From assembly GCA_963805975.1 (NCBI GenBank), contig CAWDVR010000005.1:320001-384000 (forward strand): a stretch of DNA of 64,000 nucleotides, read 5' to 3'. This stretch comes from an uncultured Acidobacteriota bacterium. GTDB lineage: Bacteria; Acidobacteriota; Thermoanaerobaculia; Multivoradales; SZUA-115. This document shows, in pieces, positions 20,953-39,467 of the stretch. The position numbers and the translations under genes are program-made. Under the pieces are notes generated by a model. It was not told where the DNA came from. It was given only the letters and a program-made list of their open reading frames with translations, and did not search any database. Numbering within the stretch: position 1 is the first letter of the stretch; every line of letters starts with the position of its first letter.

Positions 20953-22149
20953 TCAACGCGTGGCGCGCACCTTCTCCGCCACCCTCCGGTACGCCTCCCG
21001 AAACGGAACGCCCTCTTCCACCACCAGCCGGTAGGCCTCCTCGGCGGCGAAGAGGGAGGGGTCGAGCTGGGTTCGTTCGGGGTGGAAGCGGAGGCCGGGG
21101 AGGGCGTGGGCTAGGACGTCGAGGGTGGCCGTCGCGAGGTCGATGCCGCGGAAGAGCGGCGCTTTCAGGAGCTGGAGGTCACGGTGGTAGCCGGAGGGCA
21201 GCTTGGCGGTGACGGCCAGGGCCTCGACCAGGCAGGCGAGGGCCGTGGCGCCCCGGCCGCGCACCAGCTCGAAGACGTCCGGGTTCCGCTTCTGCGGCAT
21301 GATCGAGGAGCCGGTGGTCATCTCCTCGGGCAGGGTCACGAAACCCAGCTCCTGCATCGAGAAGAGCACCAGGTCCGCGGCGAGCTTCCCCAGATCCTGC
21401 ATCAGGAGCGTGATCTCGAAGAGGAGCTGCGCCTCGGCCTTGCCGCGGGAGAGCTGCACGGCGGTCACCGGCTCGTGGACCTCGGCGAAACCGAGCCGCG
21501 TGCGCGTCGCCTCGCGGTCGATCGGCAGCAGCGGCACGCCGTAGCCGGCCGCCGAGCCGAGGGGGTTCTTGTCCGCCCGGCGCGCCGCCGCCTCGAGGCC
21601 GACGGCGTCGTCCTCCAGCTCCGCGGCGAAGCCGCGCGCCCAGAGCGCCACCGAGCTCGGCATGGCGCGCTGCTGGTGGGTGTAGCCGGGCAGCAGCACC
21701 TCGCCCTGGCCCACCGCAATCCCTGCGAGCGCCGCCGCCACGGCGCGCGTACCGGCCGCGAGCCGCGGGATCGCGGCCTTCAGATACAGCCGCAGGGCGG
21801 CGAGCACCTGATCGTTGCGCGAGCGGCCGAGGTGGATGCGCCCGCCCGCCTCGCCGATCCGCGCCGTGAGCCGGTTCTCGAGCGCTGTATGCACGTCCTC
21901 GTCCGCCAGCTCGATGGCCCACTCGCCGCGCGCGTGCTCTCGGGCCAGCGCTTCGAGCCCGCCGCGGATCGCGTCGAGGTCCGCGGCCGAGAGCAGGCCC
22001 CGCTCGGAGAGCATCTCGGCGTGGGCGATCGAAGCGAGGACGTCGTAGAGCAGGAGCCGCGCGTCGAGCAGGTGGTCCTCGCCCGCGGTGTAGCGCAGGA
22101 CTTTTTCGTCGAGGCCGAGCTCGCCTTCCCTCTGCCAGAGCCGCGCCAT
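20953..22149 (-). CDS. argH: Argininosuccinate lyase (short form)
   Basis: EDVH, HLGRSRNDQ, LPGYTHQQ, TGSSIMPQKRNPDVFE and SGYHRDLQ motifs. Confidence 0.95.
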   Translation of the reverse strand: MARLWQREGELGLDEKVLRYTAGEDHLLDARLLLYDVLASIAHAEMLSERGLLSAADLDAIRGGLEALAREHARGEWAIELADEDVHTALENRLTARIGEAGGRIHLGRSRNDQVLAALRLYLKAAIPRLAAGTRAVAAALAGIAVGQGEVLLPGYTHQQRAMPSSVALWARGFAAELEDDAVGLEAAARRADKNPLGSAAGYGVPLLPIDREATRTRLGFAEVHEPVTAVQLSRGKAEAQLLFEITLLMQDLGKLAADLVLFSMQELGFVTLPEEMTTGSSIMPQKRNPDVFELVRGRGATALACLVEALAVTAKLPSGYHRDLQLLKAPLFRGIDLATATLDVLAHALPGLRFHPERTQLDPSLFAAEEAYRLVVEEGVPFREAYRRVAEKVRATR

Positions 22150-23225
22150 CAGAGGGGCCCCTGCGAGAGCCGGAGCACCAGCTCGATGTAGAAGCGCGCG
22201 CCGTCGAGGACCTCCTCCTCGTACACGTGCTCGTCGATGGTGTGCGAGCGCTCGCTCTGTCCCGGCCCTACCTTGATCGCCGGGATGCCGCCGAGGAGCG
22301 CCCAGTCGGAGAGCGTGGCCGAGCCGTAGGTCCGGGCTGCCGGCCGCGCGGCCCTGGCGGCTTGGAAGACGGCCGAGCCCTCCGGCGTCTCCCGCGGCGC
22401 GAAGCGCTCCGAGGCGATCCGTACCTCGCCCTGGACCAGTGCCTGGAGGCGGGCGATGACCTCGTGGGGCGGCAGAGCTGGCGTGGTGCGCACGTCGAGG
22501 ATCGCCGAGGCATGCGCGGGCACCGCGTTCCGGGCCTCGCCGGCCCGCACTACCGTGGGCTCGAGGGTGGTGGCGCCGAGCCAGGGGTGGGCGGGCTCGA
22601 GGTCGAGGGCCTCGAGCGCCACCAGGTCGCGCGCCAGGCGACGGGCGGCGTTGACCGCCCCGAGCTTCGCCGCATGCGCCGCGTGGCAAGCCTCGCCCTC
22701 CGCCACCAGCTCCAGGACGAGGAGGCCCTTCTGCGCCACGGCCAGGTCGAGCCCGGTGGGCTCGCCGATCACCGCCGTGCGTGGCTCGCGGCCGGTCGCC
22801 CGCAGATGCATGAGCACGCTCTCGGTGCCCACGCTCCGCGTCTCCTCGGCCTCGACCAGCGCCAGCGCCAGAGTGAAGGGCGGCGGCTCGTCGAGAAAGG
22901 CGAGAAACGCCGCGGCCATCGCCGCCACCGAAGCCTTGGCGTCGTTCGCCCCGAGGCCGATCACCTTCCCGCCTTCGCGGCGTGGCGTGAAAGGGTCGGC
23001 CGTCCAGCCGGGCGCCGGCGGCACGGTGTCGAGGTGGGTGTCGAAGAGCACCAGCGGCCCTCGGCCCACCGTCGCGAGCAGGCTCGCGCCCAGCCGCTCG
23101 ACCCTCGCACCTCGCTCCGTGAGCCAGCTCTCCATCCAGTCGGCGATCGGCCCTTCGCCGCCGGAGACCGAGGGGATGCCGACCAGCGAGCGGTGCAGCG
23201 CCAGGATCTCCTCGTCCGGGATCAT
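22149..23225 (-). CDS. argE: M20 acyl-ornithine/acyl-citrulline deacylase
   Basis: HLDTV, GLGANDAK, AEE, GEPT and SHTIDE metal-binding motifs; lies in the arg operon. Confidence 0.85.
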   Translation of the reverse strand: MIPDEEILALHRSLVGIPSVSGGEGPIADWMESWLTERGARVERLGASLLATVGRGPLVLFDTHLDTVPPAPGWTADPFTPRREGGKVIGLGANDAKASVAAMAAAFLAFLDEPPPFTLALALVEAEETRSVGTESVLMHLRATGREPRTAVIGEPTGLDLAVAQKGLLVLELVAEGEACHAAHAAKLGAVNAARRLARDLVALEALDLEPAHPWLGATTLEPTVVRAGEARNAVPAHASAILDVRTTPALPPHEVIARLQALVQGEVRIASERFAPRETPEGSAVFQAARAARPAARTYGSATLSDWALLGGIPAIKVGPGQSERSHTIDEHVYEEEVLDGARFYIELVLRLSQGPL

Positions 23226-24130
23226 CCTTCTGCCCCCGCCGAGCCGTGCGTGGACGGCGCGGCCATGTTCTCCACCACCATCGTGCCGCAGCCCTCGTTG
23301 GTGAACACCTCGACCAGCAGGCTGTCCGCACCGGCGCAGGAGACCACGTGCGCGCGCTGGACCCCGCCGCGGATGGCGGCCGCGAGCGCCTCGGCCTTGG
23401 GCAGCATGCCGCCCGACAGCGCGCCGCGGCGCTGCAGATCGGCGAGGCCGGCGAGGTCGGTGTAGGAGACGAGAGAGCCGGGGTCGTCCAGGCGCTCGAG
23501 GATGCCGGGAGCACCGGTCAGGAGGATCAGCTTCTCGGCCCCGAGGGCCACGGCGAGCGCCGCCGCCACGGTGTCGGCGTTGACGTTCAGGAGCGTGCCG
23601 TCGTCGGCCGCGGAGAGCGGGGAGACCACCGGCAGCAGGCCGGCGTCGAGCAGGGTGGTGAGCACGCGCGGCTCGACCCGGGCGATGTCGCCCACCAGGC
23701 CGAAGTCCACCACCTCGGAGCCCACCGCGACCGGCGGCCGGCGGCGGGCGCGCACCAGGCCGGCGTCGACGCCCGAGAGGCCCACGGCCGGCAGGTCGAG
23801 GCCGCGGCAGAGAGCGAGGAGCCGGGTGTTGACCGAGCCGTTCAGCACCATCGCCGCCACGTCCAGGGCCTTCTGGTCCGTCACCCGACGGCCGGCCACG
23901 ATGCGGGGCTCGGAGCCCAGGGCCCACGCCAGCTCGGTGGACTGCGGGCCGCCGCCGTGCACCAGCACGACGCGGATGCCCACGCGCCAGAGGACCTCCA
24001 CCTGCTCCAGGAGCCTCTGGGCGCGCCCTTCCTCGACGAACGCCTCGCCGCCGGCCTTGAGCACGAAGGTCTTGCCCTGGAACATGCGGAGGTAGGGCAC
24101 GGCGTGCCGCAGCCCGGCGATCTCGGTCAT
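23222..24130 (-). CDS. argB: N-acylglutamate kinase
   Basis: KAGG, VHGGGPQ, GRRVTD, NVNADT and GGMLPK motifs; no fused GNAT domain. Confidence 0.92.
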   Translation of the reverse strand: MTEIAGLRHAVPYLRMFQGKTFVLKAGGEAFVEEGRAQRLLEQVEVLWRVGIRVVLVHGGGPQSTELAWALGSEPRIVAGRRVTDQKALDVAAMVLNGSVNTRLLALCRGLDLPAVGLSGVDAGLVRARRRPPVAVGSEVVDFGLVGDIARVEPRVLTTLLDAGLLPVVSPLSAADDGTLLNVNADTVAAALAVALGAEKLILLTGAPGILERLDDPGSLVSYTDLAGLADLQRRGALSGGMLPKAEALAAAIRGGVQRAHVVSCAGADSLLVEVFTNEGCGTMVVENMAAPSTHGSAGAEG

Positions 24131-25137
24131 GGTCGAACCTCCCCCAGCAGGCGATGGAGCACGGCCATCTGCACCCAGAGCCGGTTGTGGGCCTGTCGGA
24201 CGACGGCGCTCCGCGGGCCGTCGAGCACCTCGTCGGCCACCACCACGTTGCGCCGCACGGGCAGGCAGTGCAGGAAGCGGCACTCGGGCGCGGCGCCGGC
24301 GAACCACGGCTCCGCCACGCACCAGCCGGCGAGGCCGGCCCGGAGCTCGGCCTCGCGCGCCGCGTCGCCGTAGCACTCGGCCGAGGCCCAGGACTTGGCG
24401 TAGACGACGTGCGCCCCGGCGAGCGCTTCCACGCGGGAGGAGGTCTCGGCGAGCGAGCCGCCGGAGGCCGCCGCGGCGCGGCGCGCCTTCTCCATCACCG
24501 GCGCCGGCAGGGAGTGGGACTCCGGCCGCAGCACCGTCACATCCATGCCCCGCGCCGCCGCCATGTGCACCACGGCGGCGGGCACGGCGAGCGGCAGCGG
24601 CTTGGGGTGGTGGGCCCAGGTGAGGACGAAGCGGCCGCCGCGCGCCGGGACGCCCAGATCGTCCAGCGTCTTCCAGTCGGCGAGCGCCTGGCAGGGATGG
24701 TTGGCGGCGGACTCGAGGTTGACGAGCGGCACGGGGCAGAGGTCCGCGATGGTGCCGAAGGTGCGCTCGGCGAGGTCGACCTCCAAGTCCTCGAGCCCGG
24801 CGAACGAGCGCACGCCGAGCACGTCGGCATAGCCGGCGAGCACCGGGATCGCCTCGCGCACGTGCTCGGCCGCGGCGCCGTCCATCTTCACTCCCGGGCG
24901 CGTCTCGAGCTTCCAGCTTCCCTGGCCGGGCGCGATGACGAACGACGAGCCGCCCAACCGTGCCATGGCGGACTGCATCGACGCCAGCGTGCGGAGCGAC
25001 GGGTCGAAGAACAGGAGCCCCAGCACCTTGCCGGCGAGCGCTGCGGGCTCCGGCTGCTTCTCCAATCGCGCCGCGAGCGCCAGCAGGCCTGCGATCTCTT
25101 CTCGGCCGAGGTCGGCCAGGTCGAGGAAGCTCTTCAT
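24127..25137 (-). CDS. argF: N-acyl-ornithine transcarbamylase (ArgF'; AOTCase/SOTCase family)
   Basis: PSLRT, MDGAAAEH, HPCQ, TWAHHPKPLP and HCLPVRRN motifs, which differ from canonical OTCase. Confidence 0.92.
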   Translation of the reverse strand: MKSFLDLADLGREEIAGLLALAARLEKQPEPAALAGKVLGLLFFDPSLRTLASMQSAMARLGGSSFVIAPGQGSWKLETRPGVKMDGAAAEHVREAIPVLAGYADVLGVRSFAGLEDLEVDLAERTFGTIADLCPVPLVNLESAANHPCQALADWKTLDDLGVPARGGRFVLTWAHHPKPLPLAVPAAVVHMAAARGMDVTVLRPESHSLPAPVMEKARRAAAASGGSLAETSSRVEALAGAHVVYAKSWASAECYGDAAREAELRAGLAGWCVAEPWFAGAAPECRFLHCLPVRRNVVVADEVLDGPRSAVVRQAHNRLWVQMAVLHRLLGEVRP

Positions 25138-25147
25138 GCCAGGCTCC

Positions 25148-26332
<1,185 letters not shown>

Positions 26333-26351: not shown

Positions 26352-27440
26352 CTACACCCAACCGAGGCCGGGCTGGGTGAGGCCGGTCGACTCGGGCAGG
26401 CCGTAGAGACGGTTCATCCACTGCACGGCGCCACCCGCCGCGCCCTTCACCAGGTTGTCGAGGGCCGAGAACGCCACCAGCGTGCCGTTCGCCACCGCCA
26501 GGCCGATGCGGCAGCGGTTGGTGCCCACCACCTCGGTGAGGCGCGGCGGCTCGGCCGAGACCGAGACGAACGGCGAGCCGGCGTAGAAGCCGGCCACCGC
26601 CGCCACGGCCTCCTCGGTGGTGAGGTGCCGGGCGGTCTGCGCCGTGAGCGTGGCGTAGATGCCGCGCGCGAACGGGCCGGACTGCGGCACGAACAGGATC
26701 TCGGCCGGCACCGTGGTCGCGGCCCGGATCAGGGCGCGCATCTCGGGCTGGTGGCGGTGGGCGAGCGGCTTGTAGGCGAAGAGGTTGGCGTGGCGCTCCG
26801 GGTGGTGGGTCGACGGACCCGGCGTGCGGCCGGAGCCGGTCGAGCCGGTGGTGGCGACCACCGTGATCCGCGGCTCGACCAGGCCGAGCGCCACGAGCGG
26901 CACGGCGGCGAGCACCACCGCGGTGGTGAAGCAGCCGGGGTGGGCGGCGTGGCGCACGTTGGCCTCTCCCAGGTGCTCGGGCAGCGCGCAGGTGAACTCG
27001 GCCAGGCGGTGGGGCGCGCCGTGCGCCTGGCCATAGACCTGCTCGAACTCCGCGGCCGAGGCGTAGCGGAAGTCGGCGGAGAGATCGACCACCGCGGCCT
27101 CGCTGCCCGCGGCCTCGGCGGCGCGGAGCAGGCGATCGACCAGCGGCGCCGAGGTGCCGTGCGGCGTGGCGGAGAACACGGCCACCCGCGGCCTCGCGGC
27201 CACCAGCTCTTCGAGCTCGGCGAGGGCGTGGAACCTGGCCTGCGGCCAAGCCGCGGCGAGGTGCGGGAAGGCCGCGGCCACGGCCTGGCCGGCCTGGCTC
27301 TCGGACACTGCCGCGACCTCGCCCAGCAGCGGATGCCCGAGGACCGGGTGCGCGGCGAGGAGACGCAGCAGCTCCCCGGCCACGTAGCCGGAGCCGCCCA
27401 GCACGATCGTCTGGACGCCGTCTGCCGCGGGCGCGGTCAC
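26352..27440 (-). CDS. argC: N-acyl-gamma-glutamyl-phosphate reductase
   Basis: GGSGYVAGE, ATPHG, DLSADFR, HPGCF, HRHQPE and DNLVKGAAG motifs. Confidence 0.94.
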   Translation of the reverse strand: MTAPAADGVQTIVLGGSGYVAGELLRLLAAHPVLGHPLLGEVAAVSESQAGQAVAAAFPHLAAAWPQARFHALAELEELVAARPRVAVFSATPHGTSAPLVDRLLRAAEAAGSEAAVVDLSADFRYASAAEFEQVYGQAHGAPHRLAEFTCALPEHLGEANVRHAAHPGCFTTAVVLAAVPLVALGLVEPRITVVATTGSTGSGRTPGPSTHHPERHANLFAYKPLAHRHQPEMRALIRAATTVPAEILFVPQSGPFARGIYATLTAQTARHLTTEEAVAAVAGFYAGSPFVSVSAEPPRLTEVVGTNRCRIGLAVANGTLVAFSALDNLVKGAAGGAVQWMNRLYGLPESTGLTQPGLGWV

Positions 27441-28573
27441 GAAGCCAGCTCCGTGGCAGCCTTGGGCGCGACCGGGCCTTCGGCCGGGGGCGCGGCCGGC
27501 GCGGCCCGGCGCGAGGGGAAGAGGCGCGCCAGCACCCGCTCCGCCAGCTCCTCGGCGTGCGTACGTGCGTTGATCGCCGGCACGCCGGCCGTCTCCTCGA
27601 TGATCCGCGTGCCCGCCAGGTTGTCGCTCGCCGGCCCGGTCACGGCCAGGGGGCTGAGGCCGTAGCGGTCGGCGAGGAGGCGCACGCCGCCCCAGGCGGC
27701 CACCGGGTCGTTGGCCGCGAGCAGCACGGCGGAGAAGGCGGCGCGGACCTCGGGATCGGCGAGGATCGCGTCCACGCCGTAGGCGCCGAGGAGCCCGTCC
27801 CCCAGCTCCACCACGATCACGTCCGGCCCGCCGGCCGCGAGGTCGGTCAAGAGCGTGCGGGTGATGGCCGCGGCGTTGGCGGCGGTGGTCGAGACCACGC
27901 CGAGGTCGGTGAAGAGCGCCGTCTTCCGGGCGCCGGCGTCCTCCATTGCCAGCACGTCGCGGTAGAGCGAGACGCCCGTGGCCTTGAAGGCGTCCACCGT
28001 CAGGCCGGCGTGGGCGAGCCGCTGCACCAGCGCGCAGGCGGCGGCCGTCTTCCCCGAGTTCATGCACGAGCCGACGATCGCCACCACCGGCACGCTGCGC
28101 CCGTCGGGCCGAGCCAGGTTGAGGCGCGGCGCCGCGGGCAGCGGGCGCTCGCCCACGCGGGCCGGTACCCCCACCCGCTCGGCGAGGAACGGGAAGGAGA
28201 GCACCGCGCCGAGCACCTCGCACTCGAAGGGCTGCCCGAGGTCCGGGTTGATCGAGTCGCAGTGGCCCAGCACGCCGCCGGTGTTGAGCACCTGGACGCG
28301 GTCACCCGGTGCCAGGCTCGTCGGCAGGTGCCCGGAGTAGCCGAAGAGCGCGTTGCGGTGCCCCAGAGCACCGGCCAGCACGTCGCCGCGCTTCACCAGC
28401 GCCAGCCGGCCGCTCGGCAGCTCGAGCTGGTTGTAGGTGCTCTTGTCGGAGAGCACGCGGACCGCCACCACCACACCCTCCTCGCAGGGGATGCGCGCGT
28501 CCACCAGCACCTCCCGCTTCAAACGGCAGGCGCGGGTCACGGAGGCGATCTTGTCGAGCAGCACCGGCTTCAC
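27437..28573 (-). CDS. DUF1611/DgcN-like P-loop protein embedded in the arg operon
   Basis: IVGSCMNSGKT, KATG, DAGA...DLGVVST and VELGDGLLG motifs; start and stop overlap argG and argC. Confidence 0.7.
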   Translation of the reverse strand: MKPVLLDKIASVTRACRLKREVLVDARIPCEEGVVVAVRVLSDKSTYNQLELPSGRLALVKRGDVLAGALGHRNALFGYSGHLPTSLAPGDRVQVLNTGGVLGHCDSINPDLGQPFECEVLGAVLSFPFLAERVGVPARVGERPLPAAPRLNLARPDGRSVPVVAIVGSCMNSGKTAAACALVQRLAHAGLTVDAFKATGVSLYRDVLAMEDAGARKTALFTDLGVVSTTAANAAAITRTLLTDLAAGGPDVIVVELGDGLLGAYGVDAILADPEVRAAFSAVLLAANDPVAAWGGVRLLADRYGLSPLAVTGPASDNLAGTRIIEETAGVPAINARTHAEELAERVLARLFPSRRAAPAAPPAEGPVAPKAATELAS

Positions 28574-29799
28574 GACGGACCCTCCGCACCGGCGCGGCCC
28601 GCCTTGGACCCAGCACGAGAGTAGAGCTGGCCGGGGAGGCCCAGCAGGCGCGAGAAGCCGCGCGCGTCCTCGGCCGTCCACTCGCCGGCCGCTTCGCCGT
28701 AGGTGCCGCGCGAGGCGGCCATCAGCGAGTGCGGCGAGGAGACGCCCTCGACGAACAGGCTCCCCGGCCGCAACAGCAGGAAGACCTCGCCCGTCACCCG
28801 CGCCTGGGAGGAGGTGAGCAGCGCCTCGATGTCGCGGCAGGCGGGCTCCAAGTGCTGGCCCTCGTGCACCAGGTCTCCATAGATGGCGGCGACGCCGTCC
28901 TTCACCCGCTGCTGGCGGCCGGTCAAGGTGAGCTTCTCGAGCTCGCGGTGGGCGGTGATCAGCACCTCGGCGGCCGGCGCCTCGAAGGCGACGCGGCCCT
29001 TGGAGCCCAGGATGGTGTCCCCGAGATGGATGCCGCGGCCGATGCCGTAGGGCCCCGCCTCGGCCTCCACGCGCTCGATGAGCGCCACCGGCGAGAGCGC
29101 CTCGCCGTCCCAGGCCACGGGGACCCCCTGCTCGAAGAAGAGGATGTGGCGGGACGGCGGCAGGGGGCTCTCGAAAGCGCCGCGCGACAGCACCCAGGCC
29201 TCCTCCGGGATGGAGGCCGCGCTCCCCAGCGTCTCCCGGCCGCCGATCGTCACTCCCCAGAGGCCACGGTTGATCGAGTACGCCGAGCCCCGCTGCGGCA
29301 CGGCGAGGCCGCGCGCCTCGAGGTAGGCCACCTGCTCGGCACGCGGCTTGGGATCGTCGCGCACCGGCGCCAGGATGGTGAGCTCCGGCGCCAGCGTCGA
29401 GAGTGCCACCTCGAAGCGCACCTGGTCGTTGCCGGCCGCGGTGCAGCCGTGGGCCACGGTGGTCGAGGAAAGCTCGCGCGCGGCGCGCGCCACCTCCTGC
29501 GCCTGGATCACCCGCTCCGCGCCCACCGACAGCGGGTAGAGCTGGCCGCGCCGCACGTTGCCGGCGACGAGGTGACGGAGCACGCGGTCGAAGAACATCT
29601 GCCGCGCCTCGACGCGCAGGTGGCGGACGGCCCCCAGCGCCGCGGATTGCGCCGCGAGTCGCTCGGCGGCCTCGCCGTCGAGCCCGCCGGTGTCCACCGT
29701 CACCGTGACCACCGGCCGCCGGTGGGTCTCGGCCAGCCAGGGCACGCAGTAGGAAGTGTCCAGCCCGCCCGAGAAGGCGAGGACGATGGGCTCGGTCAT
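28570..29799 (-). CDS. argG: Argininosuccinate synthase
   Basis: LAFSGGLDTS, YPLSV, HGCTAAGNDQVRF and KGRVAFEAP motifs. Confidence 0.96.
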   Translation of the reverse strand: MTEPIVLAFSGGLDTSYCVPWLAETHRRPVVTVTVDTGGLDGEAAERLAAQSAALGAVRHLRVEARQMFFDRVLRHLVAGNVRRGQLYPLSVGAERVIQAQEVARAARELSSTTVAHGCTAAGNDQVRFEVALSTLAPELTILAPVRDDPKPRAEQVAYLEARGLAVPQRGSAYSINRGLWGVTIGGRETLGSAASIPEEAWVLSRGAFESPLPPSRHILFFEQGVPVAWDGEALSPVALIERVEAEAGPYGIGRGIHLGDTILGSKGRVAFEAPAAEVLITAHRELEKLTLTGRQQRVKDGVAAIYGDLVHEGQHLEPACRDIEALLTSSQARVTGEVFLLLRPGSLFVEGVSSPHSLMAASRGTYGEAAGEWTAEDARGFSRLLGLPGQLYSRAGSKAGRAGAEGPS

Positions 29800-30260
29800 G
29801 GTGAGGGCTCCGGGGCCTGGGTGAGGAGCAGGCCGAAATGGTCCAGGAACCGCGCCTGGGCGCGGGCGTTGGCGGTGGCGACGAAGATCGTGTCGTCGCC
29901 GGCGATGGTGCCCGCCACCTCCGGCCAGCCGGCGCGGTCGATGGCGAGCGCCACGGTCTGCGCGGTGCCCACCGCCGTTTGCACCACCGCCAGGTGGGGC
30001 CCGGCCGGCCGCACGCGGCGCGCGAACCGCGCGGCGGAGGCGAGATCCTCGTCCGAGCCGCGCTCGCCGCCCGGGGGCAGGTAGCGGCCTCCCACCTTGC
30101 CCACCCCCAGGTAGCGGAGGTCCCGGCTGACGCTCGACTGCGTGGCCTCGATGCCGCGCTCGCCGAGCATCGCAACCAGCTCCTCCTGGCTCGTCACCCG
30201 GCGGGTGCGGAGCAGGTAGATGAGGGCTTCGCGGCGGGCTTGATGAAGGTCGGGTTCCAT
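29796..30260 (-). CDS. argR: Arginine repressor
   Basis: SQEEL, TQSSVSRDL and GTIAGDDTIF motifs. Confidence 0.95.
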   Translation of the reverse strand: MEPDLHQARREALIYLLRTRRVTSQEELVAMLGERGIEATQSSVSRDLRYLGVGKVGGRYLPPGGERGSDEDLASAARFARRVRPAGPHLAVVQTAVGTAQTVALAIDRAGWPEVAGTIAGDDTIFVATANARAQARFLDHFGLLLTQAPEPSP

Positions 30261-30267
30261 GGCGCCT

Positions 30268-30314
30268 CGCGTAAGTATGCGAACAATGGTGCATGAGATT
30301 GCATTTTAAGTCAA
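30268..30314 (-). promoter_or_regulatory. Tandem ARG-box-like operators overlapping a putative promoter
   Basis: CGCGT-aagt-ATGCG (30268-30281) and TGCAT-gaga-TTGCA (30290-30303), 22 bp apart, in an AT-rich patch; TTGACT on the minus strand at 30309-30314. Confidence 0.55.
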
Positions 30315-32260
30315 GGGGCCGAGGCCTCGCTCGACGAGCAACCGGAGTCTTCGCTCTCCCTCGGCCGCGAGGAGATCGAGAACCTGCCCCACCTCGGCGG
30401 GGACGTGTTCCGGGCCACCTCGCTCCTGCCCGGGGTGGCGGCCAACGACGTCTCCGCCCAGTTCAGCGTGCACGGCGGGCGCCGCGACGAGGTCAAGGTG
30501 CTGCTCGACGGGCAGGAGATCTACGGCACCTTCCACCTCAAGGACTACGACAACGCGCTGTCGATCGTCTCCTCCCGCATCCTCGCCGGTGCCGACCTCT
30601 CGACCGGCGCCTACCCGGCGGACCACGGCGACCGCATGAGCGGGGTGCTCGATTTGACGACCACCGAGCCCGCGGGCGGCAGGCAGTTCGTGCTCGGTCT
30701 CTCGGTGCTCGACCTGCAAGCCTCGGCCGCGGACCGCTTCGCCGAAGACCGCGGCGCCTGGCTCGCGACCGGCCGCCGTGGCTCCCTCGATCTCGCCGGT
30801 GATGCGATCGGCAAGGAGAACCCGCGGTTCTGGGACCTGTTCGGCAAGGTCTCGCTGGCGGGCGCTCTCGGCCAGGTGAGCGGCCGCGTGCTCGCCGCGG
30901 GCGACGGGCTGGCGATCGACACCGAGGCGGAGGACGGCTTCGAGCGCCTGGCGAACGACTATCAGAGCACCTACGGCTGGCTCAACCACCAGGCCGGGGG
31001 CAGGCGGCTGCTGGTCGAGACCCTCGCCTCGTGGTCCGGGATCGACACCGACCGCGGCGGCGCCGGCAGCGACGAGGAAGGCGGCCACCAGCTCGTGGAT
31101 CGGCGCGACCTCGAGGTGCTGGCGCTCGCCCAGACCTGGAACCTCGAGATCGCGTCGCGGCACCTCGCCCGCTGGGGATGGGAGGTCCGCGGCTACGACG
31201 TCGCCTTCGACTACGCGAAGCGGCTGGACCCGGACGTAGTGGTGATCGCGCCCTTCTCTCCTCCCCGCCGCATCGAGCACGGCCTCTCGGGTCGCTCTCG
31301 GGCGAGCACCTGGGGTTCTGGGCGAGCGACCGCTTCTCTTGGCGCAACCGGCTGACGGCCGAGCTGGGGCTACGCTACGACCGCCACACTGCCACCGACG
31401 ACACGCTGCTTTCCCCGCGCGTGAACCTGGCGTGGCAGTTGGGGGAGCGGAGCGTGGTGCGGGCGGCCTGGGGGCGGTTCTTCCAGAGCCAGCGCCCGTA
31501 CGAGCTCGAGGTCGAGGACGGGGAGAGCACGCTCTCCCGGCCGAGCGCGCGGCGCACTCGGTGCTCGGCTACGAAGCCCTGCTGCCGGCTAACCGGCTCG
31601 GCCTCGAGGCCGTCGGGTCGAGCTCTTCCGGCGCGACGTCGAGGATCCGCGCCCGCGCTACGAGCACCTGCTCGAGCCGGTGAACTTCTTCCCCGAGATC
31701 GAGCCCGACCGGGTGCGCATCGCCCCCGAGCGCAGCGCGGCCGAAGGGATCGAGCTGCTGGTGAAGGGCAGCCACGGCGAGCGCTTCGACTGGTGGCTCG
31801 CCTACTCCTACGCCCGCGCCAGGGACCGGCTGGCGGGCGAGAAGGTACCGCGATCGCTCGACCGCGGCACACGTTGAACGTGGCGCTCAACGACCGGCTG
31901 GGGAAAAGCTGGTGTTGAACCTCGCCTGGCGGTACCACACCGGCTGGCCCACGACCCCGGTCGAGGCGCGCCTGGTGCCGGACCCCGAGGATCCGGAGGA
32001 GCTCGAGCTGGTCGGGGTGTTCGGGCGTCTGAACAGCCGGCGCCTGCCCGCCTACCACCGCCTGGACCTGCGCGCTGAGCCGCCGCTGGGAGCTCTCCGC
32101 GAGCCGGCTGACGGCCTATCTCGACGTCCAGAACCTCTACGACCGCAGAAACCTCGCCGGCTTCGACGTCTCGCTCGACGAGGGCGCGGGCGTGGTGGAG
32201 CTCGAGAACGAGGACTGGCCGGGGATCTTTCCGTCGGTGGGTATTACCTGGACTTTTTAG
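30311..32260 (+). pseudogene. TonB-dependent receptor, 5'-truncated and multiply frameshifted
   Basis: Plug (LPHLGGDVFR..LLPGV, SVHGG), LSPRVNLAW, RLPAYHRLDLR and terminal GITWTF* are spread over several frames. Confidence 0.75.
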
Positions 32261-32275
32261 AGGGGGCCTTCTGAG

Positions 32276-33334
32276 TCAGCGCCGCCGCACGATCAGCGTT
32301 CCGCCTGCGAGCTCTCCCTCGAGCCCCGCGCCGGGGAGGACGACGAAGGGGGCCTGGTCCGGCCGCAGCCCGCCGATCCCTCCGCGGAGCACGATCTCGC
32401 GCGCCGGGCGGGCCAGCTCTTCGTTGGCGAAGCGGATCTGCCAGCCGGTCTCGCGCGCCACCCAGTCGAGGAAGTCCCCGACCTTCCGGCCCTCGACCTC
32501 GAAGCGGGCGGCGGCGAGCACCCAATCCCACTCCGGGCCGTAGGGGGCGCGCGCGCGCCGCGCCTCGGTTCCGTCGCGGTAGAGCACCAATTCCTCCCCG
32601 GCGGGCGCCACGCGGGTGCTCCCGTCGCGCTCCACCTCCACCGCCCCGTCGCGGACCTGGACGGAGAGCGCACCGCCTTGGCCGTCGACGCGGACGGCGA
32701 ACCGCGTGCCGATGTCGCGCGCCGTACCGAGCGGCGTTTCTACGGCGAGGCGCGCGCCCGCCCCGGCCCCGGTGTCGGCATAGACCGCTCCCTGCGCGAG
32801 GGAGATCTCGGTGGCCGACACGAAGTGCAGCCGGGTGGTCTTGTCGAGGCGCACGGAGACCCCGCTCGCGAGTGTCAGCAAGGCCCGGCTCGCGGGCTCG
32901 CCGGCGCCGGTCGAGAGGGCGGCCCCGGTGGGGATCGCCTCGCCCGGCGCGAGGGCGCGCGGCGTGCCGCCCGCGACTTCCATGGAAACCGGGCCGGTCG
33001 CGGCCTCGAGGCGGGCGACGCTCTGAACCTGGGCTCCCTGGGATCGAGTTCCGGGCGACACGCGCTCGCGTTGGGAGAACCACCACCAGCCGAGGCCGGA
33101 GGTGAGGGCGAGGGCGGCCGCCAGGGCCGCCGCGAGGGGCCAGGCCGGGCGGCGCCGGGTGGTGCGGGCGTGCCGCCGGAGCTGGAACCGCCAGGCGGAG
33201 CGCAGGTGGGCGTTGATCTCGTCGAGGTCCTCCTGCGGGATGGGCGGGCGCGGTCCGGCTCTCTCGAGCAGGCTCCGGACCTCGGCTTCCTCGGGGTCCG
33301 CGAAACGCCCGGCCGTGGTTTTTCTCTCATCCAT
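32276..33334 (-). CDS. FecR-like transmembrane anti-sigma/sensor
   Basis: Single TM; VRLDKTT, TPLGTARDIGTRFAV and VRDGAVEV FecR motifs. Confidence 0.85.
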   Translation of the reverse strand: MDERKTTAGRFADPEEAEVRSLLERAGPRPPIPQEDLDEINAHLRSAWRFQLRRHARTTRRRPAWPLAAALAAALALTSGLGWWWFSQRERVSPGTRSQGAQVQSVARLEAATGPVSMEVAGGTPRALAPGEAIPTGAALSTGAGEPASRALLTLASGVSVRLDKTTRLHFVSATEISLAQGAVYADTGAGAGARLAVETPLGTARDIGTRFAVRVDGQGGALSVQVRDGAVEVERDGSTRVAPAGEELVLYRDGTEARRARAPYGPEWDWVLAAARFEVEGRKVGDFLDWVARETGWQIRFANEELARPAREIVLRGGIGGLRPDQAPFVVLPGAGLEGELAGGTLIVRRR

Positions 33335-33911
33335 GGTCCCGCTCCTCGGCCCGCAGGCTCTCGTAGGTCCGCCGGAACGCCTCCCGTGCCCGGGTCAACA
33401 GCGACTCGGCCGCTTTCGGCGCCACTTCGAGGCGGGAGGCGATCTCTTTGACCGGCAGCTCTCCGACGTACTTCCACTCGAGCGCCCGCGCGTAGCGGGC
33501 TGGCAGCACGTCGAGCGCCATGTGCACACGCCGGGCCTCCTCCCGCGCGAGGAGCGCCGTCTCGGCATCGCCGGTCGAAGAGCGGCCGAAGCCGGGCTCC
33601 GGCTCTGCTTCGAGCTCGACCTCCGGCGGCGCCGTCCGCTGCCGCCTGAAGTGCATCAGCATCTCGTTACGGCAGCAGGCGCAAAGCCAGGTCAGGAGCG
33701 ACGCCTCGGCGCGATAGCCGTCGAGCTTCGAGAGCGCCTTGAGCATCGTCGTCTGCACCAGCTCGCGCGTCAGCTCGCGGTCGCCCGCGAGCCGGGCGTG
33801 GGCGAAGCGGTAGACGGCTGCCGTATAGCGCCCGCCGAACGCTTCGAAGGCGTCCTCGTCGCCCGCCAGCATGCGCCGGACGAGCTCCAGGTCTTCGAGA
33901 TGGTCGCCCAC
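33327..33911 (-). CDS. ECF sigma factor
   Basis: GDEDAF, LLTWL and region 4 (KEIASRLE..PKAAESLLTRAR); coupled to the FecR-like gene. Confidence 0.9.
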   Translation of the reverse strand: MGDHLEDLELVRRMLAGDEDAFEAFGGRYTAAVYRFAHARLAGDRELTRELVQTTMLKALSKLDGYRAEASLLTWLCACCRNEMLMHFRRQRTAPPEVELEAEPEPGFGRSSTGDAETALLAREEARRVHMALDVLPARYARALEWKYVGELPVKEIASRLEVAPKAAESLLTRAREAFRRTYESLRAEERDHG

Positions 33912-35220: not shown

Positions 35221-38200
35221 TCAGAAGGTGAGGCGCACGCCGATCTTGGCCTGCCAGCGGGAGCGCAGGTCGTCGGCGGAGAAGCGGGCGTCGGGGTTGG
35301 TGACGGTCAGCCGGTAGATCGGCTTGCCGGTGGCCGCGTCGACGCCGGCCAGGTTGACGGGCGAGATCTCGTCGAACTGCACGTAGCGCACCCGGCCCGA
35401 GTCGCTGTCGAACACGTTGGCGAGGTTCAGCAGGTCGAGGATCAGGCTCAAGCGGAAGCGGCTGATCGGGATCGACTGCTCGACGTGGACGTCGAGCTGG
35501 TGGAACCAGGGGGCACGCGAGGCGTTGCGCTCGACGATGCCGCCACGGGCGTCGGACAGGCCCTCGTCGGCGTTGACGTAAGAGTTGAACAGCGCCCACT
35601 GCGAGTTCTGGATCGCGGCATCACGGGTCTGAGCGGCGCAGGTCGCCGCCACGGTGCTGGTGCAGAACAGCACGTCGGACTGGCTGCCGGGCACGAAGAG
35701 CAGGTCGTTGTCGTTGGCGTCGCCGTTGATGTCGTTGGCGAACGTCGTCGAGTACGGCCGGCCGGACTGGGCGTTGTAGAAGAACGAGAAGGTGGTGGGA
35801 GCCTTCTCCCAGAACCGGGCCTGGTAGGAGGCTGAGGCGTTGAAGCGGTGCTCGATCTCGTAGTCCGAGGTGGAGAGCGCCGGGTTGTTCGGGTCGCCGG
35901 GCACGTAGACGAAGCGCCAGTTCGAGACCGCCTGGCTGGAGTTGCCGTCGTTGATCGACTCGGCGTCGCCGAAGGCGTAGGAGACGGACGCCGCGATGCC
36001 GTTGCGGAACGGCCGCTCGAGCTTCAGGGCGGCCGTCAACTGGTCGCCCTCGGAGGTATTGGTGAGGAGGATCACGTCGCTGAAACGCGCGTCCTTGCGG
36101 CGGAAGGTCGGCCGGCCGTCGAAGCCCAGACGGTTGCCGGTGGGGATCACGTTGAGGTTCTCGTAGGCGATCTCTTCCTCGTTCTGCGAGTAGATCACCT
36201 CGGCCGAGGCGACCAGGCCCCAGAGGCCGAGGTCGTAGTCATAGGCCAGGTTGGTGCGCAGCACCTGCGGGAACTCGAAGTCGGGGTCGGTGAAGTCGAC
36301 CTCGTTGGTCACCGCGCCGCCGATCGAGGTCGGCTGGTTGAAGGGATCGGGGTTGAAGGGGATGTTGTTGTTGGCCGAGACCGTGCCGTTGACGCGGAAG
36401 GTCAGGCGGGTGAACTCGACGCCGGTGTTGCCGTACTGGTTCGAGAGCCAGACGTAGGGGGCGCGGCCGGAGAAGATGCCGACGCCGCCGCGCAGCTGCT
36501 GCTTGCCGTTGCTCGCCAGGTCCCAGTTGAAGCCGATGCGGGGCGACAGCAGCAGGTTGCCGTCCGGCAGCTCGCTGGTCGAGTAGCCGAAGACCTGCGA
36601 GGCCGTGGCGTTGAACGACGGCTCGTCCGGGAAGAAGGGCACGTCGGCGCGCACACCGAGGGTCAGCGTGACGTTCGGGCGCACGGTCCAGCGGTCACCG
36701 ACGTAGAGGCCGTACTGCTGCACGTCGAACTTGGCGGCCTGTTTGGGATTGCCGGTGTTCGAGAAGCTGTAGTCGTACTGCACGGCCCAGCCGTTCTCGA
36801 AGTCGGAGAGCGTGTTGAAGGTGTAGGCGCCGAAGTTGTCGCGGATGAACAGGTTCTCGAAACCGAAGAACTCGTTGTGGGTGCCGATCGTCAGCGTGTG
36901 GTCACCGGTGATCCAGGTGATGTCGTCGGTGATCTCCAGGATGTCCTGGTCGAGCGCGTTGGCCGCCGAGAAGCGCTCGGTGCCGGCCTCGAAGATGCGC
37001 GCGCCGGGCGTGCCGTTGACGTTCGAGATGCCGCGCACCTGCACGAAGGGGAAGGGATCGTTGCCGACCCGCGTGTCCTTGATCGTCTGGTAGGTGATGC
37101 GCGCCTCGTTGAACAGCGAGCCGCTGAGCACGCTGTTGAGCTGCAGCACGCTCGAGTTGGTCTCGTCCGTGAAGTGGTAGACGTCGTCCGGGAAGCGGTA
37201 GGTGGTCGCGCCCTGGAACAGGATGTCGTTGGTGGCGTCGATGTAGTTGTGGCGCAGCGTGAGCTGGTTCGAGGCGTTGGCGTTGAAGTCGAGGCGGCCG
37301 AAGATCATGTCGTTGTCGGTGGTGCGGGTGACCTCCGAGAAGCCGCCTGGATCGTAGCCGTAGCGGTTGACCAGCGTGTTGCGGAAGCGGGTGGCCTCGG
37401 CCACGGAGCCGAAGTTGACGCCGCTCGAGCCGTCGATCGAGAAGCCGCTCGGGCGGTCGCGGCGGTTGAGCTCGCCGTTGGCGAAAAAGAAGAGCTTGTC
37501 GCGGAGGATCGGGCCGCCGATCGACAGGCCGTACTGCGACTCCTCGAAGGTGCCGAACTCGCGGTCGTCGGGCCCGTCGCCCACGTAGTCTTCGCTGCGG
37601 GTGTAGTAGTAGGCCGAGCCCTGGAAGGCGTTGGTGCCGCTCTTGGTGATGGCGTTGACACCGCCGCCCGAGAAGCCGCCCTGCCGCACGTCGTAGGGCG
37701 CCACCAGGAGCTGCAGCTCCTGGATCGCGTCGAGGCTGACCGGCTGCGTCTCGGCCTGGCCCCCGGGGTTGCCCTGGGCGGCGAGACCGAAGAGGTCGTT
37801 GTTCACCGCGCCGTCGATCTGCACGTTGTTGTAGCGGTTGTTGCGCCCGGCGACGGTCAGGGCGGCAGGCCCGTCGTTGTCCGAGTTGGTGGAGAAGAAG
37901 GGGTTGGTGCGGGCGAAGTCCTCGATGCCGCGCGATACCGTGGGCAGGCTGACGATCGCCTCCGACGACACGTTGGAGGAGGCACCGGTCTTCGCCGGGT
38001 TGATCAGCGAGCTGCTCTCGCCGACCACGGTCACCGTCTCCTCGATGGTGGCGATCGGCAGCCTGAAGGTGAGGCTCTTGTCCTCGCCGAGGTTGACGAA
38101 GACGTCCGCCTGCTCCTGGTTCTTGAAGCCGTCGATCGCGACACTCACCGTGTACGGGCCGCCGACGCGGACGTTGAGCATGGAGAACCGGCCGTCGTCA

Positions 38201-38436
38201 CGCGTGGTCGCGGTGTACACGGTGCCGGTGGGCTGGTGGATGGCGGTCACCACCGTGCCGGGAAGGGCGGTCTCGCCCTCCTCGTCGGTGATCAGGCCGG
38301 AGAGAGTGCCCGTGGTGGAGCCCTGGGCAAAGGCCACCCCGGTCCAGCCGAGGGCCAAGACCAGGGCGAGGGCTAGGCAAGGCAGGAGCCTGCTGAGCAG
38401 GGCCGCCGGCCGAGGGTGAGTCAGGCTCGAATGCAT
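35221..38436 (-). CDS. Oar-like TonB-dependent receptor with an N-terminal carboxypeptidase-regulatory-like domain
   Basis: AGGAGG RBS, signal peptide, VGGPYTV, IDGAVNND, NAITKSGTN, SPRIGFNWD and terminal RLTF. Confidence 0.92.
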   Translation of the reverse strand: MHSSLTHPRPAALLSRLLPCLALALVLALGWTGVAFAQGSTTGTLSGLITDEEGETALPGTVVTAIHQPTGTVYTATTRDDGRFSMLNVRVGGPYTVSVAIDGFKNQEQADVFVNLGEDKSLTFRLPIATIEETVTVVGESSSLINPAKTGASSNVSSEAIVSLPTVSRGIEDFARTNPFFSTNSDNDGPAALTVAGRNNRYNNVQIDGAVNNDLFGLAAQGNPGGQAETQPVSLDAIQELQLLVAPYDVRQGGFSGGGVNAITKSGTNAFQGSAYYYTRSEDYVGDGPDDREFGTFEESQYGLSIGGPILRDKLFFFANGELNRRDRPSGFSIDGSSGVNFGSVAEATRFRNTLVNRYGYDPGGFSEVTRTTDNDMIFGRLDFNANASNQLTLRHNYIDATNDILFQGATTYRFPDDVYHFTDETNSSVLQLNSVLSGSLFNEARITYQTIKDTRVGNDPFPFVQVRGISNVNGTPGARIFEAGTERFSAANALDQDILEITDDITWITGDHTLTIGTHNEFFGFENLFIRDNFGAYTFNTLSDFENGWAVQYDYSFSNTGNPKQAAKFDVQQYGLYVGDRWTVRPNVTLTLGVRADVPFFPDEPSFNATASQVFGYSTSELPDGNLLLSPRIGFNWDLASNGKQQLRGGVGIFSGRAPYVWLSNQYGNTGVEFTRLTFRVNGTVSANNNIPFNPDPFNQPTSIGGAVTNEVDFTDPDFEFPQVLRTNLAYDYDLGLWGLVASAEVIYSQNEEEIAYENLNVIPTGNRLGFDGRPTFRRKDARFSDVILLTNTSEGDQLTAALKLERPFRNGIAASVSYAFGDAESINDGNSSQAVSNWRFVYVPGDPNNPALSTSDYEIEHRFNASASYQARFWEKAPTTFSFFYNAQSGRPYSTTFANDINGDANDNDLLFVPGSQSDVLFCTSTVAATCAAQTRDAAIQNSQWALFNSYVNADEGLSDARGGIVERNASRAPWFHQLDVHVEQSIPISRFRLSLILDLLNLANVFDSDSGRVRYVQFDEISPVNLAGVDAATGKPIYRLTVTNPDARFSADDLRSRWQAKIGVRLTF

Positions 38437-38695
38437 GGTGAATCCTCCTGGTATGCGGGGGCGTGGTCGTTCGGGCGGTATTCGGCTCGCCTGGGGAGCT
38501 TGCACATAGAGAGCGGGAGCTCCGAAGATGGACAGCGCAGGCCTCGGCGTCCTGCTAAGAGAAAACGGATCGGGGCGGAGCTTATACAGGTTCCCCGCCG
38601 CCTGGGAAGAGCCATTTCTTGAACGCCGTACGCCGGCTTCGTGGCAGGGGTGTGACGGCGCGGGCTAACCTACGATGGCCGCTGTCTTTTCGCTC

Positions 38696-39467
38696 TCAGG
38701 TGGCCTTGCGGTGCAGGTGGTGGGCGGTGGCCTGGTCGCGGGGGCGGACCACGATCTCGTCCACGTTGACGTGCGGCGGGCGGGTCGCCGCCCAGACGAT
38801 GCAGTCCGCCACGTCCTCGGCGGTGAGCGGCGTCAGGCCGCGGTAGACCGCCGCGGCGCGCTCGGCATCGCCCTCGAAACGGACCAGCGAGAACTCGGTT
38901 TCGACCAGGCCTGGGGCGATGTCGGTCACCCGCACCGGCTGCCCGAGGAGCTCGAGGCGCAGGGTGCGGGTGAGGGCGCGTTCGGCGTGCTTGGCGGCGG
39001 TGTAGCCGGCGCCGCCGGCGTAGGTCTCGAAGCCGGCGATCGAGCCCACGTTCACCACGTGCCCGTCCCCCGAGGCGAGGAGCGCCGGCAGCAGGCCACG
39101 GGTCATGCGGAGCGTGCCCAGCACGTTGGTGTCGAACATCTGCCGCCACTTGGCCTCGTCGGCCTCGCCGATCGACTCGAGGCCCACCGCGCCGCCGGCA
39201 TTGTTGACCAGGAGGTTCGACCGCCGGCACCGCCGCCGTGAAGGCGGCGACGCTCGCCGGGTCGGTGACGTCGAGCGGCAGGGCCCGGCCGCCGATCTCG
39301 GCCGCCAGCTTCTCCAGGCGGTCGAGGCGCCGGGCGCCGGCCACCACCTCGAAGCCCGCCGCGGCCAGGGCACGGGCGGTGGCCGCGCCGATGCCGGAGG
39401 AGGCCCCGGTCACGACCGCCACCTTGCGCCCCACGACCTTGTGTTGCGTCTCGCTCCCGCCGGGCAT
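38696..39467 (-). CDS. SDR oxidoreductase (YdfG-like) with a single frameshift near 39218
   Basis: TGASSGIG lies in one frame; NNAG and YTAAK lie in another. Confidence 0.8.

Follow-up and report, generated by a model that had tools for sequence, protein, structure and literature searches.

A P-loop protein predicted to acylate glutamate in the arginine operon of an uncultured Acidobacteriota bacterium, tentatively read as a succinate:L-glutamate ligase

Introduction

The first step of arginine synthesis is taken in described systems by classical ArgA/NAGS, the short GNAT ArgA, ArgJ or LysW/LysX; the GNAT, Ntn hydrolase and ATP-grasp folds of ArgA, ArgJ and LysX are unrelated to that of the protein considered here. 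A further family was predicted by Price et al. (bioRxiv 10.1101/2024.10.14.618325; PLoS Genet 2026, PMC13759103), whose GapMind analysis gives the first-step role to a Steroidobacter protein on four grounds: its location in an arg operon, its mutual exclusion with ArgA, a weak Foldseek similarity to DgcN (PDB 7XRJ) and a residue of the accompanying ArgF'. The predicted family is found in 109 genera; no experimental evidence for the predicted alternative ArgA is listed in their table, no acyl donor is named, and the appendix and supplements mention neither ATP dependence nor a P-loop (PMC13759103). DgcN acylates glutamate and is called an N-acetyltransferase in the title of PDB 7XRJ (see also the GapMind text, PMC13759103, and excerpted text of PMC10845958). 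DgcN acts in the context of D-glutamate catabolism, whereas the gene described here stands among genes of arginine biosynthesis.

A second group for comparison comprises the ATP-dependent C-N ligases BioD, CTP synthase and formyl-tetrahydrofolate (formyl-THF) synthetase, with CobB and CobQ as related ATP-dependent C-N ligases. In Mycobacterium tuberculosis BioD, the ADP-Mg pocket includes K15, T16, K37, D49 and E108, according to the excerpted text of PMC9932657.

Here we analyse gene X, found in a 64,000-nucleotide stretch of DNA from an uncultured Acidobacteriota bacterium (the window). Our main reading, to which we give a probability of about 0.4, is that X is a succinate:L-glutamate ligase driven by ATP. 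Such an enzyme would let arginine synthesis begin without CoA and would reuse the succinate set free by ArgE, and it would be the first functionally assigned member of its clan.

Results

Gene X within the arginine operon

Pfam and NCBIfam assignments give an operon of the order argR-G-X-C-D-F'-B-E-H (Table 1), within which neither library finds an acetylglutamate synthase. The sequence-only reading of this DNA had singled out a 378-aa gene overlapping argG and argC, and this description holds: X overlaps the stop of argG and the start of argC by 4 bp each (GTGA), has GGAGG immediately 5' of its GTG start, and has a GC3 of 0.96, on par with its neighbours. GC3, conservation and model quality all speak for a gene, and a shadow ORF was rejected on these grounds. 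The full-length model (pLDDT 95.5) consists of a near all-beta N-domain and a P-loop C-domain; folded alone and with no alignment, the N-domain reaches a pLDDT of 38. Conserved features of the N-domain are LGHRxALxGYSG and C105, and an Atlas search with it returned no named family. The three C-domain motifs picked out from the sequence (GSCMNSGKT, KATG and ELGDG) are all present. Among Pfam and NCBIfam models, X has no match to GNAT ArgA, ArgJ or LysX, and its scores for MobB fall far under the cut-off, on which ground that identity was rejected.

Table 1. Gene X, its domains and motifs, and the genes of its operon (positions in the window).
Feature	Position	Strand	Basis
argR, arginine repressor	29796..30260	-	Pfam/NCBIfam
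argG, argininosuccinate synthase	28570..29799	-	Pfam/NCBIfam
gene X (378 aa, predicted first-step enzyme)	27437..28573	-	GTG start, model, family conservation
gene X N-terminal domain (~residues 1-130), nearly all beta	28184..28573	-	model secondary structure, pLDDT 96-98
gene X Walker A loop G168-S-C-M-N-S-G-K175-T176 (GSCMNSGKT, 168-176)	28046..28072	-	sequence, family conservation
gene X K197-A-T199-G200 (KATG, 197-200) ... D206	27956..27985	-	aligned to BioD K37, T41-G42, D48 (M. tuberculosis numbering)
gene X E256-L-G-D-G (ELGDG, 256-260)	27794..27808	-	aligned to BioD EGAGG, DUF1611 EGQG
argC, N-acyl-glutamyl-phosphate reductase	26352..27440	-	TIGR01850 over cut-off
argD, acylornithine aminotransferase	25148..26332	-	Pfam/NCBIfam
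argF', N-acylornithine carbamoyltransferase	24127..25137	-	NF003384 over cut-off; Ala90 codon 24868-24870
argB, N-acylglutamate kinase, no fused GNAT domain	23222..24130	-	Pfam/NCBIfam
argE-like M20 deacylase, candidate N-succinylcitrulline desuccinylase	22149..23225	-	Pfam/NCBIfam
argH, argininosuccinate lyase	20953..22149	-	NCBIfam

Upstream of argR, where putative ARG boxes had been noted, two overlapping ARG-box-like sites (30290..30313, minus strand) each have one mismatch to the ARG-box consensus, and they overlap a TTGACT hexamer. By the same consensus, such a site lies 5' of argR in 103 of 108 loci, as against 10.8% of shuffles; a simple promoter scan returned no site. By eye, a receptor-like gene and a short-chain dehydrogenase-like gene (30293-32274 and 38670-39467) are split over several frames, suggesting assembly indel errors or pseudogenes; unlike these, the arg operon itself is intact. 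Also by eye, ECF sigma-like and FecR-like genes and a 1094-aa TonB-dependent-receptor-like gene occupy 32276-33911 and 35221-38505.

Homologues of X in arginine operons

At least 544 metagenome homologues (of 600 candidates listed) and at least 595 genome homologues (of 600 listed) were confirmed, the closest named relatives being Thermoanaerobaculia at ~75% identity. The loci examined were the best 80 metagenome matches, the best 80 genome matches and 20 relatives including the window's own, a non-random set of 180 top-scoring matches with a few duplicates. An arg gene adjoins X in all 180 of these best-scoring loci, so that the expected clustering with arg genes is borne out; the next arg gene downstream is argC in 172, the contig ending there in the other 8. 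In a quick FastTree tree of 96 sequences of at least 300 aa, the arg-operon sequences form a single clade (support 0.999), and its sister clades, at ~30% identity, sit outside arg operons.

The deacylase step varies among these operons. In the window's genome and in its order, argE is retained within the X operon, and argE is absent from S. denitrificans; among the genome-contig loci, complete operons most often take a form that has no argE (28 loci). Close homologues of the window's ArgE were found in none of 36 X-bearing genomes outside the order (best 28-35% identity). In X operons without argE, the deacylase step is a second gap, which the GapMind paper had also pointed out (PMC13759103). 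Loci L127-L185, mostly gammaproteobacterial X operons, have no argE within the operon.

Distribution against the known first-step enzymes

Within the host's order, 31 of 61 genomes have argC, and every one of these has a candidate for amino protection: a close X homologue in 22 (all the genomes of the order with such a homologue), ArgJ in 7 of the remaining nine, and LysX beside argC in the other 2. Classical ArgA, the short GNAT ArgA, ArgJ and LysW/LysX thus share a pathway position with X and are distributed in a complementary way. Full-length ArgA (TIGR01890) was over its cut-off in none of 42 X-bearing genomes, where the strong matches below the cut-off are ArgB, and NF005840 in none of 41; ArgJ occurs in 1 of 78 further X-bearing genomes. 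PF04768 had no match in control genomes, and its search is hence uninformative; NF005921 put no control over the cut-off. The genomes counted are related and many are incomplete, so these figures describe a pattern of non-independent counts and carry no statistic. X and ArgJ occur together in 2 genomes, in which argJ lies in a lysine dap operon. At L268:6706-7980 and L269:6088-7419, a lysine cluster (asd, dapA, dapD and an aminotransferase, with dapB in L269), and not an arg operon, begins with an argJ-family gene, and these argJ-family genes may have a role in the diaminopimelate pathway.

The window's own genome (96% complete) has a single copy of X, and a profile search put none of ArgJ, ArgA, short ArgA and LysX over the cut-off; its 16 GNAT matches all lie outside the arg operon. 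Given the arg context, the complementarity with ArgJ and LysX and the lack of ArgA, ArgJ and LysX in the genome, X is very likely to carry out the first, glutamate N-acylating step of arginine synthesis. The proposal of a non-orthologous replacement for ArgA is in this respect supported, as a predicted role.

The acyl group

Ala90 of the window's ArgF' aligns with Glu92 of the X. campestris AOTCase, and the best PDB match of this ArgF' is an AOTCase variant with Ala at that switch position. Among 96 ArgF' proteins neighbouring X, the residue is Ala in 91 and Ser in 5, with Glu, the acetyl-type residue, in none. GapMind Appendix 2 (PMC13759103) cites a rule under which A, P, S or V at position 92 marks succinylated intermediates, and the Ala and Ser found here therefore point to such intermediates. 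If X takes the first step, the group that it attaches would with good probability be succinyl. Of the earlier suggestion of succinyl-CoA as donor, the succinyl half is favoured by Ala90, and CoA chemistry appears somewhat less likely than ligation with ATP.

Kinship of X to DUF1611 and DgcN

The sequence-only reading had labelled X a DUF1611/DgcN-like protein. PF07755 (DUF1611) matches X with 14.5 bits (E 0.024, residues 158-200; cut-off 25) and matches 15 of 92 X homologues weakly (best E 1.3e-5). PF17396 (DUF1611_N, Rossmann-like), present in 19 of 19 DUF1611 proteins, has no match among the 92; DgcN has this Rossmann-like domain at its N-terminus, and X has the beta domain in its place. The remote kinship of the C-terminal P-loop domain is upheld and membership in the family is not: X is a SIMIBI relative of DUF1611.

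A structural search with the X model ranks two DUF1611 entries first (2g0t, Z 17.0; 2obn, Z 16.4), followed by BioD (15.8), CTP synthase (15.7), DgcN 7xrj (15.4) and formyl-THF synthetase (13.3), with matches that run essentially through the C-domain only. The likeness to DUF1611/DgcN consists of a SIMIBI-class P-loop domain (Z 15.4-17.0, rmsd ~3 A over ~180 residues, 13-14% identity), of the common elements GK, Thr-Gly, xD (FxD/LD) and E-G, and of a glutamate substrate, which for X is inferred. In Foldseek, SRP GTPases come out on top and 2obn is at rank 50. Profile comparison with hhalign, again through the C-domain only, scored X at 93.5% against 19 DUF1611 proteins and 83.4% against 8 BioD proteins. 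Among PDB sequences, phmmer found no match to X, and an X profile matched P-loop stretches only. The comparison with DgcN that had been proposed as a check thus recovers the P-loop fold, but in a tie with BioD and CTP synthase. DUF1611_N itself matches a SucD-like CoA-binding domain weakly (probability 4.5%, E 0.009; X control 0.25%), which offers a lead only on its identity.

The P-loop and its surrounding residues

The P-loop had been described as degenerate; X in fact has an intact GxxxxxGKT of the BioD type, and the Thr after the Lys is missing from the DUF1611/DgcN proteins instead, which have Arg, Met or Leu there (GK-T in 0 of 19, a second Lys in 0 of 19). The motifs differ along the domain, GTDxxxGK[RM]T and TGQT in DUF1611/DgcN as against GSCMNSGKT and KATGVS in X, and DgcN itself reads GKMYT and FRATGQTG, with Arg at the place of K197. 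K175, T176, K197 and E256 of X align exactly with K15, T16, K37 and the EGAGG glutamate of M. tuberculosis BioD, and D206 aligns with D48, one residue off D49. In BioD, these positions are those of the Walker A Lys-Thr, of the second Lys after strand 2 and of acidic Mg ligands. BioD, CTP synthase and formyl-THF synthetase share the fold of X, and their K-T / K / D / E set aligns with it; compared with BioD, X has an extra N-terminal beta domain, ~16% identity and different inferred substrates, and TIGR00347 has no match in the window's own genome.

Each of the 183 arg-operon loci has all five residues (K175, T176, K197, D206 and E256) unchanged, and 90-91 of 92 wider homologues keep them. C170 and M171 are likewise identical in 183 of 183 loci, C170 being specific to the arg clade and closer relatives. 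X keeps Mg-ATP residues (T176, K197 and D206) that DUF1611 proteins lack, and for this reason ATP ligation is read as likelier than CoA transfer; given the first-step role, we put it at slightly better than even. The simplest reading would be that DgcN lost the use of Mg-ATP and X kept it.

Discussion

The idea that X takes the first step, which the sequence-only reading had thought to be undescribed, was already in print: Price et al. predict it on the same grounds (PMC13759103). For the family to which a Steroidobacteraceae-titled record belongs, each of 61 genomes carries an X homologue at 57-66% identity, and in Steroidobacteraceae-titled loci the homologue is the unnamed gene of the arg cluster. 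Judged from the genomes of that family, X and the A0A127FCT3 (ACG33_RS14135) of Price et al. almost certainly belong to one family. The Steroidobacter-type alternative ArgA and X furthermore both have the same set of arg genes around them, both resemble DgcN 7XRJ remotely, both exclude ArgA and both accompany a succinyl-type ArgF'. The first-step idea is likely to be correct, with X almost certainly a member of the predicted family, and since it had been published our result on that part is a confirmation. The family would close a real pathway gap and is common in Thermoanaerobaculia and Steroidobacteraceae. For an ATP-dependent succinate-glutamate ligase, a literature search at the level of listings, covering few subscription papers, found no description, and a search on DUF1611 returned unrelated papers only.

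As a succinate-glutamate ligase, X would bind Mg-ATP at its P-loop through K175 and T176, while D206 and E256 would coordinate the Mg. Succinate would be activated to succinyl-phosphate, held by K197, and the amino group of glutamate would attack it to give N-succinyl-L-glutamate, ADP and phosphate, as in BioD and formyl-THF synthetase. ArgB, ArgC, ArgD, ArgF' and ArgE would then process the succinylated intermediates as far as citrulline, freeing succinate that X could reuse. Were X to use ATP and free succinate, arginine synthesis would here begin with a step of a new type, and an assay offering only acyl-CoA would miss its activity.

Several observations weigh against ligation with ATP. The two top fold matches are DUF1611 entries, which also give the better profile match; the Thr-Gly and FxD/LD elements are common to X and DUF1611, with the DgcN Arg standing at the place of K197; and D206 is aligned one residue off the pocket aspartate of BioD. 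Moreover, a Pta-like BioD-type domain (L225), which we take to be regulatory, keeps the same K/K/D/E set, and these residues therefore indicate nucleotide binding, not ligation. Lastly, the invariant C170 is a possible acyl-enzyme nucleophile. Much of this would suit a succinyl-CoA:L-glutamate N-succinyltransferase, in which, as in a DgcN-like enzyme, the P-loop would hold the CoA pyrophosphate; this was the mechanism first suggested for X and is the natural reading of the GapMind prediction. The same operon context and distribution speak for it, as do the kinship to a family whose member DgcN acylates glutamate and C170 as the would-be nucleophile. X has, however, no DgcN-like Rossmann domain, keeps Mg/ATP residues unlike DUF1611, and is no more similar to DgcN than to BioD or CTP synthase, and we consider a CoA-dependent transferase somewhat less likely than the ligase.

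It is less probable still that X makes N-acetylglutamate from acetate or acetyl-CoA. The NCBIfam name of the ArgF' family, N-acetylornithine carbamoyltransferase, and the acetyl group used by DgcN would be in keeping with such a product; the consistent lack of Glu at the switch of the neighbouring ArgF' proteins argues against it.

X might instead bind NTP as a helper or regulator of the pathway, acting for instance with ArgC or ArgB, and the first step would then fall to a stray GNAT protein. Many SIMIBI proteins are regulators or chaperones, and the window's own genome has 16 GNAT matches. Yet X is complementary to ArgA, ArgJ and LysX, with argC genomes that have ArgJ or LysX doing without X, and many of its polar residues are invariant, so that a helper role seems distinctly improbable.

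Least probable of all is an ArgJ-like transacylase that would pass succinyl from N-succinylcitrulline to glutamate through Cys170 and so fill the ArgA and ArgE gaps together, a reading to which the frequent operon form without argE, the lack of close ArgE homologues in the 36 X-bearing genomes from outside the order and the restriction of C170 to the arg clade and closer relatives lend some appeal, but for which the intact Mg-ATP site would be unneeded, while the window's genome and order keep argE in the X operon and an unrelated deacylase elsewhere could cover the ArgE gap.

If X is a succinate-glutamate ligase, its wider clan may consist of acid-amine ligases with a beta domain and a BioD-like domain, with other clades in phosphonate and peptide-modification clusters, and a function would be suggested for many proteins that at present bear the label DUF1611 or dethiobiotin synthase. 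Longer forms of X were considered as true fusions and set aside: they amount to 11 matches, nearly all single-member clusters, and one (P0026) reads as frameshifted. In another protein (P0086, 626 aa), a distant X homologue (43%) runs without obvious frameshift into an amino-acid-kinase domain that terminates in the ArgB/ArgA-like EILTDDGCGTM, a possible X-ArgB fusion of single occurrence.

Among the sister clades, one homologue lies on a Priestia megaterium plasmid (NZ_CP085446; L266:4781-13469). The annotation of its cluster names a PEP-mutase-family protein, two TPP enzymes, two ATP-grasp proteins, an ornithine carbamoyltransferase, an M20 peptidase and an LLM oxidoreductase, and the cluster looks like one for a phosphonopeptide. 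Members of a second sister clade (L264, L265, L267 and L272) sit just 5' of an ABC transporter, two of them after an alpha/beta hydrolase; RefSeq labels them 'DUF1611 domain-containing protein' or 'dethiobiotin synthase', and they retain the GKT, the second Lys, the Asp and the Glu and lack Cys170. A third sister clade (L211:1061-3321, L273:6152-8688 and L212:7323-8450) adjoins an M20-like peptidase (by eye) or an ATP-grasp protein, and in its L212 copy neither the P-loop Lys-Thr nor the second Lys nor the Glu remains.
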